From positions 56,737-120,736 of the forward strand of contig JAEUOU010000006.1 in the NCBI GenBank assembly GCA_016790575.1: a DNA stretch of 64,000 nucleotides, written 5' to 3'. A model generated the notes under the pieces. That model was given only the letters and a program-made list of their open reading frames with translations, did not search any database and was not told where the DNA came from. The position numbers and the translations under genes are program-made. Below are positions 38,942 through 42,629 of the stretch, piece after piece (the stretch's first letter is position 1; every line of letters starts with the position of its first letter). This stretch comes from Burkholderiaceae bacterium (lineage in GTDB: Bacteria; Pseudomonadota; Gammaproteobacteria; Burkholderiales; Burkholderiaceae_C).

Positions 38942-39699
38942 GGCGAGAGTTTGACATCCCCGACAAAGGCCAGGCTGCGCCCGCCGGTGTTGTCGCTGTC
39001 CGTGCCGACCACCACCGCCGTCATCGGCGGCGTGGTGGGGCTTTCGTCGCCGAAGGCGCGCTGGAAGTCGGCGGCGATCGGGCGGCGGTGTTCGCGCCAC
39101 TGACCCAGGGGGCTGTCGCTGCCATCGACCACCAGCCAGCGCATGCGCCGGGTGTAGGCGTTGGCCAGCACGGTGCCGGCGGGCAATTGCGGGTCCCAGA
39201 CGTAACACAGGGTGGCCGCCGGAAGGGCTTCACCGGAAACGGTGCGCGCCAGGCGCAACAGGCTGCGTTCGCCCAGCGACAGGCGAGACAGTGGCTGGTC
39301 GAACATCACACACAGCTTGACGGCGGCATCGTCGCCGGCGCGCTGGCGCAGGTCGGCGCCGGGCACAGGCTGGTCGAGCCGCCAGCGCCAGGCCAGCGCC
39401 GTCTGCGGCTGTGCGGGCAACAGGGGCAGGTCGTGCACCAGTGTGCCGTATGAGGCCGTGCTGGCCAGGCGCAATACGGCGGCGCCGGGAACGAGGCGGT
39501 GGTCCAGCAGCATCGCACTCAATGGCACCTTGCCGCCGGGCAGTCCGACCGCCCGCCAGGCGGGCGGCGGTGCATCGCCGCGCCCGGCAGAAAAGGCGGC
39601 CAGCGGCCCCGCCGGGGGCAGTGCCGGCTCGGCCGACTGCGCCTCAGCGGCCCAGATCGTTGAGAGACCAGTCGTAATCGAGAAAAGAAATCGCCACAT
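38938..39699 (-). CDS. DUF3047-like secreted protein
   Basis: MWRFLFSITTGLSTIWAAEA signal peptide, WRAVGLPGGKVP, and AAVKLCVMFD...CYVWDPQLPAG. The start at 39699 overlaps the DUF547 3' end by 56 nt, so the start is uncertain. Confidence 0.6.
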   Translation of the reverse strand: MWRFLFSITTGLSTIWAAEAQSAEPALPPAGPLAAFSAGRGDAPPPAWRAVGLPGGKVPLSAMLLDHRLVPGAAVLRLASTASYGTLVHDLPLLPAQPQTALAWRWRLDQPVPGADLRQRAGDDAAVKLCVMFDQPLSRLSLGERSLLRLARTVSGEALPAATLCYVWDPQLPAGTVLANAYTRRMRWLVVDGSDSPLGQWREHRRPIAADFQRAFGDESPTTPPMTAVVVGTDSDNTGGRSLAFVGDVKLSP

Positions 39700-40465
39700 G
39701 GCGCTCCTGCAGTCGTTGCCGGTTGGGCGCATCGGACGCCAGGGTGTTGGCATAGCGGGCAAACACGTCTTCCAGGCGCGCAAAGCCCTGGTGGCCTTTT
39801 TCAAAGTCTTCACGGAACCATTTGAAGATACTCGAAACCTGCAGCCCGCCCGGACTGAGGCGGTTGCGGGTGCGATCACCAAGGAAGCGCTGCATGCCGT
39901 CTTCCAGCATGGCTTCCAGGCGATCGGCCGTGAAGGCTTGCGGAAACAGCGCGGGACAACCGATGCTGGCGCAGTTGACGGCCACATGCACGCGGGGCTC
40001 CTGGTAGCGCGGGCGAAGCTGCTCATGCTCGATCCAGTCCAGATGGCGGGTCTCGCCAAGCAGGGTGAAGAACTTTTTCTTCCAGGGCGATTGCAGCAAC
40101 GAGCCCAGATCCTTGATGGATTTGAGATCGGGGTATTGCGTCAGGATCAGCTCGATGGTGAAGCCGTTGTAGGCATTGATCAGAAAAACCATCTGTTCGG
40201 CGCGGGGCAGGGCGTTGAACTGGGCCGGGGTGACGGCAGACCATTGCGCCAGCACCGCCTGCAAGGCGGCGCGATCGGCGGCGAAGCCCCGGTAGTCCAC
40301 CCGCGACTGCCGGTTGTCGGGCAGCCAGCGCACATGCTTTTTCAGCAGTGCCTCCCAGGCCTGGTAGCGGGTGTCCAGCCCGGAATTCTGGGCAAAACCG
40401 GGCGTACCCAGCGTAAAAAGGTGCAATGCAGCTATATAAAAGATAGCGTTTCGGCGGGTGTTCAT
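39644..40465 (-). CDS. DUF547 domain protein (secreted)
   Basis: VDYRGFAADRAAL, MVFLINAYNGFTIELIL and HVAVNCASIGCPAL are typical of DUF547. The N-terminal signal peptide is encoded by repeat copy B. Confidence 0.65.
   Translation of the reverse strand: MNTRRNAIFYIAALHLFTLGTPGFAQNSGLDTRYQAWEALLKKHVRWLPDNRQSRVDYRGFAADRAALQAVLAQWSAVTPAQFNALPRAEQMVFLINAYNGFTIELILTQYPDLKSIKDLGSLLQSPWKKKFFTLLGETRHLDWIEHEQLRPRYQEPRVHVAVNCASIGCPALFPQAFTADRLEAMLEDGMQRFLGDRTRNRLSPGGLQVSSIFKWFREDFEKGHQGFARLEDVFARYANTLASDAPNRQRLQERHVAISFLDYDWSLNDLGR
40382..40448 (-). repeat. Dispersed repeat family, copy B (reverse orientation, inside the 5' end of the DUF547 CDS)
   Basis: The reverse complement CGCTATCTTTTATATAGCTGCATTGCACCTTTTTACGCTGGGTACGCCCGGTTTTGCCCAGAATTCC aligns with copies A, C, D and E. 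Confidence 0.8.
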
Positions 40466-40466
40466 G

Positions 40467-42629
40467 TCAGCCTCGCTTCCAGTCGTGGAATTTCCGCACC
40501 CACTGCAGCAGGCGCTGCGGCGCATGGGCCCGTTTCCATTCGCCGGCGGCGTATTTGTTGGCTTCTGCCAGGGTCGGATAGGTGTGGATGGTGCCCAGAA
40601 TCTTGTTCAGGCCCAGGCCATGTTTCATGGCCAGCACATACTCGGCCAGCAGGTCGCCGGCATGGGTGCCGACAATGGTCACGCCCAGAATCCGGTCCTT
40701 GCCGGGCACGGTGAGCACCTTGACGAAGCCGTGCGCCTCGCTGTCGGCGATGGCGCGGTCCAGATCGTCGATTCCGTACTTCGTCACCTCGTAGGCAATG
40801 CCTTTTTCCTTCGCTTCCTGCTCGTTCAGGCCGACACGGGCCACTTCGGGGTCGATGAAGGTGGCCCAGGGGATGACCGAGTAGTCCGCCTTGAACTTGC
40901 GGAAGTCGCCGAACAGGGCATTGACGGCGGCATACCAGGCCTGGTGCGCGGCGGTGTGGGTGAACTGGAACGGCCCGGCCACGTCGCCGGCGGCAAAAAT
41001 GTTGGGGTAGATCGTCTGCAGGTATTCGTTGGTCTCGACCGTGCGGTTCGTCGGGATGCCCAGGTCTTCCAGGCCGTAGCCGGTCAGCCGCGCGACACGG
41101 CCGACGGCGCACAGCAGCTGGTCGAAGGCGATGCGCTTCTCCACCCCATCGTGTTCCACCACCAGCGTCTTCTCGCCGTTCACCCGCTCGCAGCGCAGCG
41201 CCTTGTGGCCGGTGAGCACGGCCACGCCGTCGGCTGCCAGCGAGGCCTTCGCGAGTGCCGAGACCTCCTCATCCTCGCGGATCATCAGGCGCGGCGCCAT
41301 TTCGACCTGCGTGACCTGCGCCCCCAGCCGCGCAAAACTTTGCGCCAGTTCGCAGCCGATAGGGCCGCCGCCCAGCACCACCAGGCGCCTGGGCACCTCG
41401 TCGAGCCGGGCAAATGCATCCCACAGCGTGTCGCTGGTGACGTAGCCCACGTCATCCAGCCCCGGCAGCGGCGGCACGAAGGGCCGGGCGCCGGCCGCGA
41501 TGACGATGCTGCGGGCCGTGAGCCGCTGTGTTCCGCCGCCGGTGAGCGCAATCTCCACCGTCCACGGGTTGACCAGTTTCGCGTAGCCCTGCAACACCTC
41601 CACCCCCAGGCCGGTGTAGCGTTCCACGCTGTCGTGTGGCGCGATGGCCTGGATCACGTCGTGGATGCGCTGCATCACCGCCTTGAAACGGAATCCGGGC
41701 GTGGCATCGGACAGGCCGTAGCGCGAGGCGTGACGCATCTGGTGCGCCAGCTTGGCGCTGCGGATCAGCGCCTTGCTCGGCACGCAGCCGTAGTTCAGGC
41801 AGTCGCCGCCCATCTTGTGGGCTTCCACCAGCGTGACTTTGGCCTTCACCGCCGCGGCGATGTAGGCACTGACCAGGCCGCCCGCGCCGGCGCCGATCAC
41901 GATCAGGTTGCGGTCGAAGCGCTGTGGCCGCTGGGGCGCCCACCGGGCGTAGACCTTGCGCTTCTGGACCGCTTCGACCAGCCTGCGCGCCATCAAGGGG
42001 AACAGGCCCAGCAGCACAAAGCTGCCCAGCAGGGCGGGGCTGAGAATGCCCTGGAGGGAATTGAGCTGGCCCAGTTGGGTGCCGGCATTCACATACACCG
42101 CCGTGCCCGCCAGCATGCCCAGCTGGCTGACCCAGTAGAAGGTCCGGGCCTTCATCTTTGTCAGGCCCATCAGCAGGTTGATGACAAAAAACGGGACCAC
42201 GGGGATCAGGCGCAGGGTGAACAGGTAGAAGGCACCGTCCTTGTCGATGCCGCGGTTGATCTCGGCCAGCCGCTGCCCGAAGCGGCTTTGCACGCTGTCG
42301 CGCAGCAGAAATCGTGCGGTCAGAAAGGCCAGCGTCGCGCCGATGCTGGAGGCAAACGACACCAGCAGCAAGCCCCAGCCCAGGCCGAACAGGGCACCAC
42401 CGGCCAGGGTCACGATCGTGGCGCCGGGCAGCGACAGCGCCGTCACCGCCACATAGGTCACGAAATAGGCCGCCGCCATGGTCAGGGGCTGCGTGGCGCG
42501 CAGTTCTGCGAAGCGGGCCTGGCTTTCCTTGAGAAATTCGAGGCTGAAATAGCGGTTCCAGCCCAGGGCGAAAAACGCCCCGACGGTGGCCACAAGCGCC
42601 AGCAGGACCAGGATTTTTCTCACGTTCAC
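40467..42629 (-). CDS. Fusion: N-terminal TVP38/TMEM64 (DedA-like) membrane domain plus C-terminal class-I flavoprotein disulfide reductase (mercuric reductase/dihydrolipoamide dehydrogenase-like)
   Basis: 720 aa. About the first 230 aa are hydrophobic, with FYLFTLRLIPVVPFFVINL. This is followed by LIVIGAGAGG and the GGDCLNYGCVPSK redox-active CxxxxC, and a C-terminal dimerisation region HTYPTLAE. Confidence 0.8.
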   Translation of the reverse strand: MNVRKILVLLALVATVGAFFALGWNRYFSLEFLKESQARFAELRATQPLTMAAAYFVTYVAVTALSLPGATIVTLAGGALFGLGWGLLLVSFASSIGATLAFLTARFLLRDSVQSRFGQRLAEINRGIDKDGAFYLFTLRLIPVVPFFVINLLMGLTKMKARTFYWVSQLGMLAGTAVYVNAGTQLGQLNSLQGILSPALLGSFVLLGLFPLMARRLVEAVQKRKVYARWAPQRPQRFDRNLIVIGAGAGGLVSAYIAAAVKAKVTLVEAHKMGGDCLNYGCVPSKALIRSAKLAHQMRHASRYGLSDATPGFRFKAVMQRIHDVIQAIAPHDSVERYTGLGVEVLQGYAKLVNPWTVEIALTGGGTQRLTARSIVIAAGARPFVPPLPGLDDVGYVTSDTLWDAFARLDEVPRRLVVLGGGPIGCELAQSFARLGAQVTQVEMAPRLMIREDEEVSALAKASLAADGVAVLTGHKALRCERVNGEKTLVVEHDGVEKRIAFDQLLCAVGRVARLTGYGLEDLGIPTNRTVETNEYLQTIYPNIFAAGDVAGPFQFTHTAAHQAWYAAVNALFGDFRKFKADYSVIPWATFIDPEVARVGLNEQEAKEKGIAYEVTKYGIDDLDRAIADSEAHGFVKVLTVPGKDRILGVTIVGTHAGDLLAEYVLAMKHGLGLNKILGTIHTYPTLAEANKYAAGEWKRAHAPQRLLQWVRKFHDWKRG

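Follow-up and report, generated by a model that had tools for sequence, protein, structure and literature searches.

Rickettsia palindromic elements (RPEs), as outlined in a review, are dispersed short repeats found both in intergenic regions and in frame inside many unrelated genes (Ogata et al., 2000, 2002, in PMC10969869). They are the closest precedent for the repeat described here, the likeness being one of kind and not of sequence homology. The uptake sequences USS of Pasteurellaceae and DUS of Neisseriaceae have cores of ~9–12 bp that occur roughly once per kb, and combine helically phased AT tracts, lineage dialects, favoured coding frames, a preference for weakly constrained protein segments and positions that are conserved among relatives. 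REPs, which reportedly bind gyrase and IHF, are another dispersed class. They are GC-rich imperfect palindromes carrying a GTAG or CGTC tag (PMC3733652). The Betaproteobacterial repeat element (BRE) has been reported from Bordetella and from Comamonadaceae, reaching 29 copies in Polaromonas JS666. The element is ~90 bp long, GC-rich (69%), often tandem and present in few copies, mostly intergenic with some in coding sequences (PMC3110155). Strong gyrase sites show a GC/AT oscillation of ~10–10.5 bp over roughly 130 bp, with one side stronger (10.1101/2025.10.21.683783 and work cited there).

We examined a short repeat in a 64,000-nucleotide stretch of DNA from a Burkholderiaceae bacterium, referred to below as the window, one copy of which (copy B) enters the 5′ end of a gene encoding a DUF547 protein. 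An earlier note on this DNA had drawn attention to copy B and to a second copy (copy D) in the leader of an M16 peptidase, and had proposed a mobile or recombining signal-peptide cassette. We favour a different reading, to which we assign a probability of about 0.65, namely that copy B is a member of an old family of ~450 boundary elements that doubles as a leader where genes abut.

Repeat copies in the DUF547 and M16B leaders

The 5′ end of the DUF547 gene reads ATG AAC ACC CGC CGA AAC GCT ATC TTT TAT ATA GCT GCA TTG CAC CTT TTT ACG CTG GGT ACG CCC GGT TTT GCC CAG and is translated as MNTRRNAIFYIAALHLFTLGTPGFAQ. Codons 7–28 are supplied by copy B, whose core, CACCTTTTTACGCTGGGTA, is identical to the family core at 18 of 19 bases; in a repeat search of the window, 40383–40447 paired with 26514–26578 and 59307–59361. 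Copy D, within which the ATG of the second M16 peptidase gene (M16B) falls, reads ATA GCT ATA AAG CAC CTT TTT GCA CTG GGT, a repeat frame identical to that of copy B, and the sequence at both leaders is as the earlier note had described it. That note also regarded copy B as the signal peptide of the DUF547 protein, which is correct for codons 7–28 but does not extend to the n-region MNTRRN (40449–40465). This segment lies outside the repeat and is ancestral, since orthologues without the repeat also have an MNTRRN-type start.

Residues 7–25 of the predicted 25-residue DUF547 signal peptide are encoded by copy B. Its successive parts, MNTRRN, AIFYIAALHLFTLG and TPGFA followed by Q, have Sec/Tat-type features that pass a crude n/h/c rule screen (a basic n-region, an uncharged hydrophobic h-region of 7–15+ residues and small residues at −3/−1). 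Both the RR n-region and the F-[AGS]/Q junction are conserved among DUF547 orthologues, and cleavage would probably follow residue 25. Searches with NCBIfam and Pfam gave no match to a Tat-signal model in either the DUF547 or the M16 leader.

Upstream of the DUF547 gene, and in the same direction, runs a gene for a fusion of a VTT/DedA-type domain with a pyridine-nucleotide-disulphide oxidoreductase. A gap of 1 nt separates the end of its stop codon from the DUF547 ATG, and therefore there is no intergenic room for a repeat; this gene order recurs at orthologous loci. The gap between the two M16 genes (M16A and M16B) is 13 nt. SD-like GAGG/GAGGGA motifs precede the starts of both DUF547 and M16B. 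Neither start lies downstream of the repeat, that of DUF547 lying upstream of copy B and that of M16B inside copy D. The copy at 61074..61135 stands where a stop and a start overlap on the minus strand; in reverse it encodes the final codons of gene 61080–62051 (minus strand) and gives the ATG (GCTATGAA) to gene 59374–61083 (minus strand).

All six copies in the window have positional counterparts in a related genome, G041. This holds for the M16 leader copy and for the copies at 46082..46141, 59307..59372 and 61074..61135, while the counterpart of copy A occupies the same spacer in the opposite orientation. Collinear DNA is only ~73% identical between the two genomes. The collinear DNA around these copies is mostly coding.

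Table 1. Repeat copies and associated genes in the window (positions count from its first nucleotide)
Feature	Position	Strand	Basis
Copy A, non-coding, just past the 3′ end of gene 26645–27643 (−)	26513..26578	+	nhmmer 57.7 bits
DUF547 gene	39644..40465	−	PF04784, E=2e-21 (Pfam search); 273 aa
Predicted DUF547 signal peptide (25 residues), MNTRRN-AIFYIAALHLFTLGTPGFA, followed by QNS	40391..40465	−	Translation, rule-based screen, orthologue comparison
Repeat copy B	40382..40448	−	nhmmer 37.7 bits over HMM positions 2–68; E=3e-10 to 6e-11
Copy B palindrome module, GCTATCTTTTATATAGC	40447–40431	−	
Copy B core, CACCTTTTTACGCTGGGTA	40423–40405	−	
Copy B 3′ portion, T-tract/GCC tail after the core		−	
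VTT/DedA-type domain fused to pyridine-nucleotide-disulphide oxidoreductase, upstream co-directional gene	40467..42629	−	ORF list, Pfam, sequence
Non-coding copy between convergent genes, beginning at the stop codon of gene 45492–46088 (+)	46082..46141	−	nhmmer 43.1 bits
M16B leader copy (copy D)	53296..53362	+	nhmmer 46.3 bits
Second M16 peptidase (M16B) CDS, leader MKNIAIKHLFALGIGLFCMKSALA, followed by VLPVQQW	53299–54636	+	Pfam M16/M16_C
Non-coding copy filling the 68-bp spacer between convergent stops 59305 and 59374	59307..59372	+	nhmmer 60.3 bits
Copy at overlapping minus-strand stop/start junction	61074..61135	+	nhmmer 38.9 bits; reverse-frame listing; context

A repeat family at gene boundaries

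The earlier note had recognised a leader that is homologous at the DNA level between two unrelated, predicted exported proteins and is also found non-coding elsewhere; this observation holds for a family of ~450 copies. An nhmmer profile detected ~449–466 copies of the ~70-nt AT-rich repeat in the 3.45-Mb genome, one per 7.5 kb, and the family core allowing two mismatches or fewer occurs 260 times, compared with none for a reversed control. The element is built of a palindrome module (GCTAY-N7-RTAGC) and an A-tract, then the core GACCTTTTTACGCTGGGTAT, a second tract of either A or T, and GAAA. Around 29 positions across 63 columns are constrained, and information is strongly position-specific, columns of ~2 bits standing beside columns of ~0 bits. 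Some three quarters of the copies are non-coding and located at gene boundaries; by the gene caller about half are intergenic, and they face gene 3′ ends more often than 5′ ends. Genes were called with a simple codon-usage method whose calls span 84% of the genome, which makes the counts of boundary and internal copies approximate.

Coding sequence contains around 90 of the ~450 copies, read in frame +0 or in frame −2 according to their orientation, so that the two orientations of coding copies give two different peptides. Copies that run on into strongly coding sequence number 47–48 in the forward and 41 in the reverse orientation. Approximately 36 are internal to proteins with coding sequence on both flanks (19 forward, 17 reverse), including MiaA, the CCA-adding enzyme, ComEC and an acyl-CoA dehydrogenase. 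As described for RPEs, the repeat therefore occurs both as non-coding DNA and in frame within unrelated ORFs. Counted over 449 copies, the core can be read without a stop in forward frame 0 in 348 cases, against 29 for frame 1 and 151 for frame 2. The common frame of copies B and D is consequently not an independent coincidence, because the remaining two forward frames usually hold stop codons.

In the genome-wide census that the earlier note had proposed, ~16 copies were found in signal-peptide-like leaders (~10 forward and 6 reverse, with an h-region overlap of at least 20 nt), as called by crude hydropathy and the −3/−1 rule together with orthologue comparison; two of these leader genes encode lipoproteins with a lipobox. 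All 14 leader copies that could be assessed stand behind a co-directional neighbour. CAC (His) replaces GAC (Asp) in 9 of 11 forward leaders but in only 63 of 438 other copies (Fisher p=1.9e-6), and leader copies are thus adapted at the protein level by an Asp to His change. The repeat-encoded leaders are probably translated, exported and cleaved.

The favoured reading runs as follows. Most elements occupy gene boundaries, but co-directional genes that abut, such as oxidoreductase/DUF547 and M16A/M16B, leave no spacer, and the element then lies within the ~28 codons that open the downstream gene. Its open frame reads I-A-x-x-(D/H)-L-F-T-L-G-I-G-x-F because T-tracts occupy second codon positions, and this peptide can act as h-region and c-region of a signal peptide provided that CAC (His) stands in place of the Asp codon. 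An element within a leader therefore places one DNA under two constraints, the nucleotide motif of the repeat and a working leader peptide.

AT content oscillates with a period of 10–10.5 bp; the amplitude is 0.12 in the element and 0.046 in its 3′ flank, whereas controls reach 0.008 at most. In a mutual-information scan of the copies, AAAA and TTTT tracts interchange between copies, seen as coupling of neighbouring columns, and no Watson-Crick covariation was detected. RNA folding of the consensus and of individual copies on both strands was unremarkable (z-scores −0.5 to −1.3), and the palindrome arms pair in only ~50–90% of copies per position. By folding, arm pairing and covariation alike, the repeat shows no convincing potential for the stable hairpin of an RPE-type palindrome. 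A second hairpin (GGCC..GGCC) read from the top copies was dropped after the covariation scan. Phased A/T tracts without base-pair covariation point to a function of double-stranded DNA, and the element may act as, for example, a wrapped or bent protein-binding site for gyrase or a nucleoid protein. In Rfam 15 no match in the window reaches the gathering score, and permissive thresholds gave only chance-level matches (E>1), on copy 59307. A sigma-70 promoter, a sigma-54 promoter and an IHF site were compared by eye with the consensus and set aside, since the spacings do not appear to fit.

A wider proposal, which we advance tentatively and rate as possible but below even odds, is that the repeat is an undescribed chromosomal element, maintained by selection in a large part of the Comamonadaceae. 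Its footprint would be ~130 bp, made up of the core and 10.5-bp-phased A/T tracts. It would stand at gene boundaries, retained at equivalent sites in different genera, with gyrase or a nucleoid protein as the probable wrapping factor, and in tight operon junctions it would be dual-coded with signal peptides and protein loops. If this were true, a DNA-architecture signal in tight operon junctions would partly shape protein N-termini.

Age, distribution and rival origins

The repeat family is old and not recently mobile. Pairwise identity at variable columns is 0.359, compared with 0.362 expected for independent draws, and these columns are therefore saturated; only one pair of near-identical copies and one pair of adjacent copies were found, and no recent transposition, in the form of near-identical copies at non-orthologous sites, was detected across the family. 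Between window copies and their G041 counterparts, identity is 80% for conserved but 51% for variable columns. Conservation of the motif blocks could result partly from gene conversion instead of selection. Some turnover nevertheless occurs, given the inversion of copy A relative to G041 and one G041 copy that is missing in G000 as a unit-sized indel.

The family core gave no match beyond G000 when its own genus and 40 relatives of other genera were searched, and the family was traced in relatives only after the search had been loosened to the palindrome module and variant cores. Core 'dialects' proved to be lineage-specific (G000, G041/G042, G012 and G009), and the palindrome module occurs 20–284 times in genomes of about 40 of the 121 genera of Comamonadaceae, compared with 0–5 for controls. 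Age, positional conservation, presence in about a third of the family's genera and 10.5-bp phasing are together unusual traits of this repeat family. For DUF547, the best 80 of 549 related loci from a search of genome contigs were kept, and GCTAT-N7-ATAGC (two substitutions or fewer) is present at the same codons in 29 of 69 orthologues, in frame in all 29. The palindrome codons ATA and GCT are rare in the mature part of DUF547 (3.4% of Ile and 7.7% of Ala codons, respectively), and the MNTRR start is conserved in the orthologues. The M16 leader copy and the MiaA loop copy are also common to several other genomes.

The element probably first arrived as a unit insertion. However, a simple unit insertion would not account for the DUF547 leader and the MiaA loop, whose length is nearly equal with or without the repeat. 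Elsewhere the MiaA loop of G050 is ~20 aa longer and has a repeat-like tail, and M16B of G012 has an N-terminal extension.

An alternative that we regard as unlikely is a functionless, selfish MITE- or REP-like element, possibly once mobilised by a Y1/RAYT protein, with the leader and loop copies as tolerated accidents of the sort seen in RPEs. The unit-sized difference between G000 and G041 and the longer G050 loop are in keeping with such an element, as is insertion in permissive frames only, the expected residue of purifying selection against disruptive insertions. The genome also has candidate enzymes in a PF01797 search, an IS200-like gene on C29, around which no repeats occur, and a RAYT-like ORF on C5; the latter, however, lacks the HUH motif (replaced by F-Q-I) and has no flanking repeats, the nearest being 5 kb off. 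No terminal inverted repeats were seen, nothing upstream of the palindrome mirroring the 3′ end in an anchored alignment of 449 copies, and the single filled-versus-empty comparison (G041 against G000) shows no clear target-site duplication. A selfish origin also sits poorly with information that is sharply position-specific while variable columns are saturated, with orthologous motif blocks that exceed the surrounding DNA in identity as variable columns fall below it, with rare palindrome codons kept across genera, and with a phased A/T periodicity that reaches past the element.

More doubtful is an uptake-signal-like motif of the USS/DUS type, spread by molecular drive and accumulating in situ, tolerant coding parts included, because a DNA-uptake receptor would favour it. 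The lineage dialects, the phased A/T tracts, the substitution of sequence at constant length and the coding copies in favoured frames, tolerant segments and both orientations are all features that such a motif would share. With ~29 constrained positions over 63 columns, the repeat is, however, far longer than known uptake sequences and about 7-fold sparser, the unit-sized indel does not fit, and the organism's own ComEC bears a copy.

The cassette of the earlier note, which would donate export leaders by transposition or recombination, is very improbable. It could draw on the ~16 genes with partly repeat-encoded leaders, on the enrichment of the His variant in leader copies and on the palindrome, which gives A-I-x-x-I-A in either orientation. 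Leaders nevertheless account for only ~3–4% of copies, most of the others being non-coding at boundaries and ~36 internal to proteins, and it is stop codons in the other frames that impose the common one. The copies in leaders are old and positionally orthologous, in a family without recent copying. Nor did the repeat confer export, because orthologues that lack it already carry normal signal peptides of about the same length; for DUF547, those in Hydrogenophaga and in G030, which belongs to a different family within the order, have GC-rich leaders of the MNTRRxx type.

Least probable of all is that the starts are mis-called, with repeats in 5′ untranslated leaders, true starts downstream and nothing repeat-encoded; although the codon-usage caller picked downstream starts for several leader genes and M16B has an internal ATG at 53341, no DUF547 start codon occurs between 40465 and the conserved mature region and MNTRR and GAGG are conserved, M16B from 53341 would keep only MKSALA before its mature part (too short against the signal peptides of its orthologues), the motif is in frame in every orthologue that bears it, and the Asp to His bias is specific to leader copies.

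Comparison with described repeat systems

Like REP/BIME and REPIN-RAYT systems, the repeat comprises hundreds of short copies, found preferentially beyond gene 3′ ends and between genes that converge, and the single RAYT-like Y1 gene of the genome recalls REPIN-RAYT. REPs are essentially extragenic, and the repeat differs from them in being AT-rich and without a stable stem, and in the RAYT-like protein having neither HUH nor flanking copies. We therefore reject identity with REP/REPIN-RAYT, there being no tagged GC-rich palindrome and no cognate RAYT flanked by repeats. BRE, compared by its published description, is likewise rejected on composition and arrangement, since the present repeat is AT-rich, dispersed and present in hundreds of copies. 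It resembles USS and DUS in being over-represented and AT-phased, with dialects, favoured frames and conserved positions, but differs in its number of constrained positions and its density. Its period, extent and one-sided asymmetry are like those of strong gyrase sites, a likeness of sequence mechanics only; its placement at converging transcription is suggestive of such sites by analogy, whereas nothing in the degenerate E. coli gyrase motif corresponds to the conserved 19-bp core. The family may represent a genome-architecture signal, which would be directly testable in cultivated Rhodoferax, Polaromonas and Variovorax. For annotation it carries a warning, because start-codon choice and repeat masking will misjudge repeat-led genes.

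The resemblance to RPEs lies in a conserved peptide per family, old copies common to related species and the use of permissive protein parts. The two differ in size (100–150 bp for RPEs and ~70 bp here) and in host, an AT-rich obligate intracellular bacterium in one case and free-living, GC-rich Comamonadaceae in the other. Unlike RPEs, the present repeat has unconvincing hairpin potential, uses two orientations and is concentrated at gene junctions. Its ~16 copies as predicted signal-peptide cores also set it apart from RPEs as reviewed in PMC10969869, which makes no mention of signal-peptide use (the word 'signal' is absent). Dispersed repeats that are read as protein have until now been documented mainly in Rickettsia. 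If our reading is true, the Comamonadaceae repeat would add an independent and larger second example, from GC-rich bacteria that live freely. It would come with a defined use, in that it forms the hydrophobic core of ~16 signal peptides, and with an adaptation, Asp to His, that can be measured. It also provides a natural test of the extent to which signal peptides can absorb constraint at the nucleotide level.

The DUF547 leader and the repeat family

The DUF547 gene follows its upstream neighbour closely, the TGA of the latter being separated by 1 base from the DUF547 ATG, which is preceded at 5 nt by a GAGG motif. Its opening codons, MNTRRNAIFYIAALHLFTLGTPGFAQNS, are identical on the minus strand to those read in the earlier note. 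The n-region, MNTRRN, lies outside the repeat, and copy B, in the codons that follow, equals the family core, the 19-nt conserved part, at 18 of 19 bases. A repeat search of the window paired 40383-40447 with 26514-26578 and 59307-59361, and alignment recovered the ~67-nt unit of copy B at 53292-53358 as well, with a weaker match at 61066-61132. The repeat search also revealed a GC-rich tandem array with a 12-nt period (family D1) at 51305-51603.

Features of the DUF547 locus and repeat copies at gene junctions in the window
Feature	Position	Strand	Remarks
VTT/DedA-type domain fused to pyridine-nucleotide-disulphide oxidoreductase	40467-42629	minus	co-directional, upstream of DUF547; Pfam
DUF547 ORF	ATG 40465 to 39644	minus	273 aa; PF04784, E=2e-21
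Repeat copy B	40382-40448	minus	DUF547 codons 7-28; 37.7 bits (nhmmer)
Repeat copy	59307-59372		fills exactly the 68-bp spacer between convergent stops 59305 / 59374; same element in the spacer of the MAG genome G041
Repeat copy	61074-61135		read in reverse, last codons of gene 61080-62051(-); palindrome arm GCTATGAA contributes the ATG of gene 59374-61083(-)

An nhmmer profile seeded with four window copies and iterated over the whole genome (G000; 3.45 Mb, 64.7% GC) identified 449-466 copies, with the consensus tcGCTAYtaaattcRTAGCaaAAAAtGACCTTTTtACGCTGGGTATgGGCcgATTTcgcccGAAAa. Allowing up to two mismatches, the core has 260 matches in the genome and its reversed control 0. Comparison of the window and repeat copies with Rfam matched the repeat to no family. 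A simple codon-usage caller, whose 2941 genes cover 84% of the genome, places about half of the copies between genes; many overlap gene ends, and the two ends of the element are turned towards 3' ends of genes more frequently than towards 5' ends.

Reading frame and signal-peptide leaders

The core is open in forward frame 0, the frame of the earlier note, in 348 of 449 copies, compared with 29 in frame 1 and 151 in frame 2. Since frame 0 is mostly the sole open frame, any forward coding copy is nearly forced into it; the frame shared by copy B and the copy in the leader of the second M16 peptidase (M16B) is therefore real, as the earlier note stated, but not independent evidence. The T-tracts form second codon positions of the open frame, giving Leu, Phe and Ile. 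With strongly coding sequence defined as at least 25 bits per 80 codons (off-frame 99th percentile, -42), 47-48 forward copies run on in frame 0 into such sequence, 19-20 of them flanked by coding sequence on both sides; internal examples are MiaA, CCA-adding enzyme, ComEC, a type II secretion F-like protein, acyl-CoA dehydrogenase and DsbD. The reverse orientation has a second permissive frame, which reads ..IPSVKRSL.A.. and accounts for 41 coding copies (17-18 internal). A DsbD-like gene outside the window (contig C36:19387-21658) carries two in-frame copies, the first in the leader and the second internal, around residue 620.

Using a crude n/h/c-region rule that required at least 20 nt of overlap between repeat and signal-peptide-like h-region, we found ~10 forward and 6 reverse copies in leaders, among them those of DsbD and two lipoproteins with lipoboxes (an SCO1-like protein at C24:37911 and a small protein at C12:186644). 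The genome-wide census that the earlier note had called for hence yields ~16 repeat-overlapping leaders, or about 3-4% of the 449-466 copies: the repeat can be embedded generally, and leaders are one of its minor uses. No further DUF547 start is available from 40465 up to the conserved mature region. The M16B ATG at 53299 lies within the repeat; the next, at 53341, would leave only MKSALA ahead of the conserved mature start, and orthologues have full signal peptides. A co-directional neighbour lies upstream of the leader copy in all 14 assessable cases. The family's GAC (Asp) is replaced by CAC (His) in 9 of 11 forward leader copies versus 63 of 438 other copies (Fisher p=1.9e-6), which is what intolerance of an acidic residue in the h-region would produce. 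Export and cleavage of the repeat-encoded leaders are predicted from these sequences; in a protein-family model search, the Tat model matched neither the DUF547 nor the M16B leader.

Hydrogenophaga orthologues of DUF547, like the one in the genome G030, which belongs to a different family within the order, start with MNTRR(R/Q/H).. directly behind the same upstream gene. Comparison with repeat-free orthologues, also proposed earlier, thus finds ordinary, GC-rich leaders of similar length already there, and neither the DUF547 leader nor a MiaA loop differs much in length between proteins that have the repeat and those that lack it. GCTAT-N7-ATAGC, a form of the palindrome module, stands at the same codons in 29 of 69 DUF547 orthologues (up to 2 substitutions; 16 exact), in frame in 29 of 29. 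The observation that two unrelated exported proteins share leader sequence encoded by the repeat is right; its reading as a mobile or recombining signal-peptide cassette is not, given how few copies are leaders and that the repeat took the place of pre-existing leaders and did not create export. We propose that the element belongs at gene boundaries, as at 61074-61135, where one repeat occupies a stop/start overlap junction. With no spacer between neighbours, it lies in the stretch of the downstream gene that tolerates it best, the signal peptide, and other coding copies fall in loops or C-terminal ends (61074-61135 as a gene tail, for example).

Age and distribution of the family

From 23 to 64 kb the window is collinear with a contig of G041 at ~73% nucleotide identity, and each of the six window copies is matched by a G041 copy at the orthologous position, five of them in unchanged orientation. 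The sixth, the G041 copy corresponding to 26513-26578, occupies the same spacer in the opposite orientation with respect to the neighbouring genes and has an A-tract for the T-tract, which suggests local inversion or independent acquisition. Between two ABC-importer-region genes, G041 has a full repeat copy (C12, ~145438-145493) whose 3' end gives the downstream gene's ATG, and at 28719-28743 our genome has a gap of 24 nt in which the remnant CTTGAAG gives a TTG start; this reflects either a unit deletion here or an insertion in G041. Orthologous copies in the two genomes are 80% identical at conserved columns and 51% at variable columns. Within our genome, pairwise identity at variable columns is 0.359 versus 0.362 expected for independent draws, and the family shows no recent copying. 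From these comparisons, the family is old, not detectably active now and under position-specific constraint; in a purely neutral relic, decay would be even.

A Y1-transposase search of the genome found no repeats flanking either an IS200-like gene or a RAYT-like ORF, both outside the window. The former, an intact IS200-type TnpA (C29:2884-3246; PF01797, 128 bits), sits on a contig of 20 kb without repeat copies. The latter (C5:135656-135886; 249 aa, weak PF01797, 21 bits), in which HUH has become F-Q-I and which lies ~5 kb from the nearest copies, may be a REP-type transposase that has been domesticated or is dead.

The organism belongs to the Comamonadaceae, and orthologous loci were taken from MAGs labelled Rhodoferax, Polaromonas, Variovorax and Hydrogenophaga. 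A search of 40 relatives belonging to other genera did not find the exact core. The MAG genomes G041 and G042 contain 57 and 74 occurrences of a variant core, CCATTTGACGCTGGGAA, and the repeat families of two other comparison genomes (G012 and G009) have the palindrome module and general layout in common with ours; core variants are lineage-specific and lie at orthologous sites. GCTAT-N7-ATAGC is present 20-284 times in ~40 of 121 genera of the family (controls, 0-5). Across these 121 genomes the count is bimodal, 0-5 or 20-284, with an N7 spacer that is nearly always AT-rich, a pattern that may distinguish a clade or genomes with a specific binding protein. In many of the relatives the DUF547 leaders retain the blocks GCT AT. 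... ATA GC. ... CT. TT. ACG ... TTT G.. CA., with ATA and GCT at these sites, codons that account for 3.4% of Ile and 7.7% of Ala usage over the mature part of these genes. The M16B leader and MiaA loop copies are shared, in decayed form, with several genomes.

DNA-level character and comparison with known systems

Folding of the repeat is unremarkable and its palindrome arms pair inconsistently. A mutual-information scan of repeat copies detected no Watson-Crick covariation, and the strong coupling of neighbouring columns that it revealed represents interchanging AAAA/TTTT tracts. AT content shows a periodicity of 10-10.5 bp, with an amplitude of 0.12 within the element, 0.046 for ~60 bp past its 3' end and 0.018 on the 5' side (random-control maximum, 0.008). 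This phasing, together with the lack of covariation, points to a function of double-stranded DNA rather than RNA, possibly as a bent or wrapped ~130-bp footprint with a specific core. Gyrase sites (10.1101/2025.10.21.683783) are similar in asymmetry and ~10-bp GC oscillation, a resemblance of sequence only.

When the repeat was compared with REP/REPIN, MITE, uptake sequences and BRE (PMC3110155), several of the defining features tested were absent. The closest known kind is the Rickettsia palindromic elements, described in PMC10969869 (citing Ogata 2000 and 2002) as repeats in coding and non-coding DNA that are read in frame, as here. The present family is set apart from them by its size and host, the lack of hairpin potential, the two orientations used, its bias towards junctions and its use in signal peptides.
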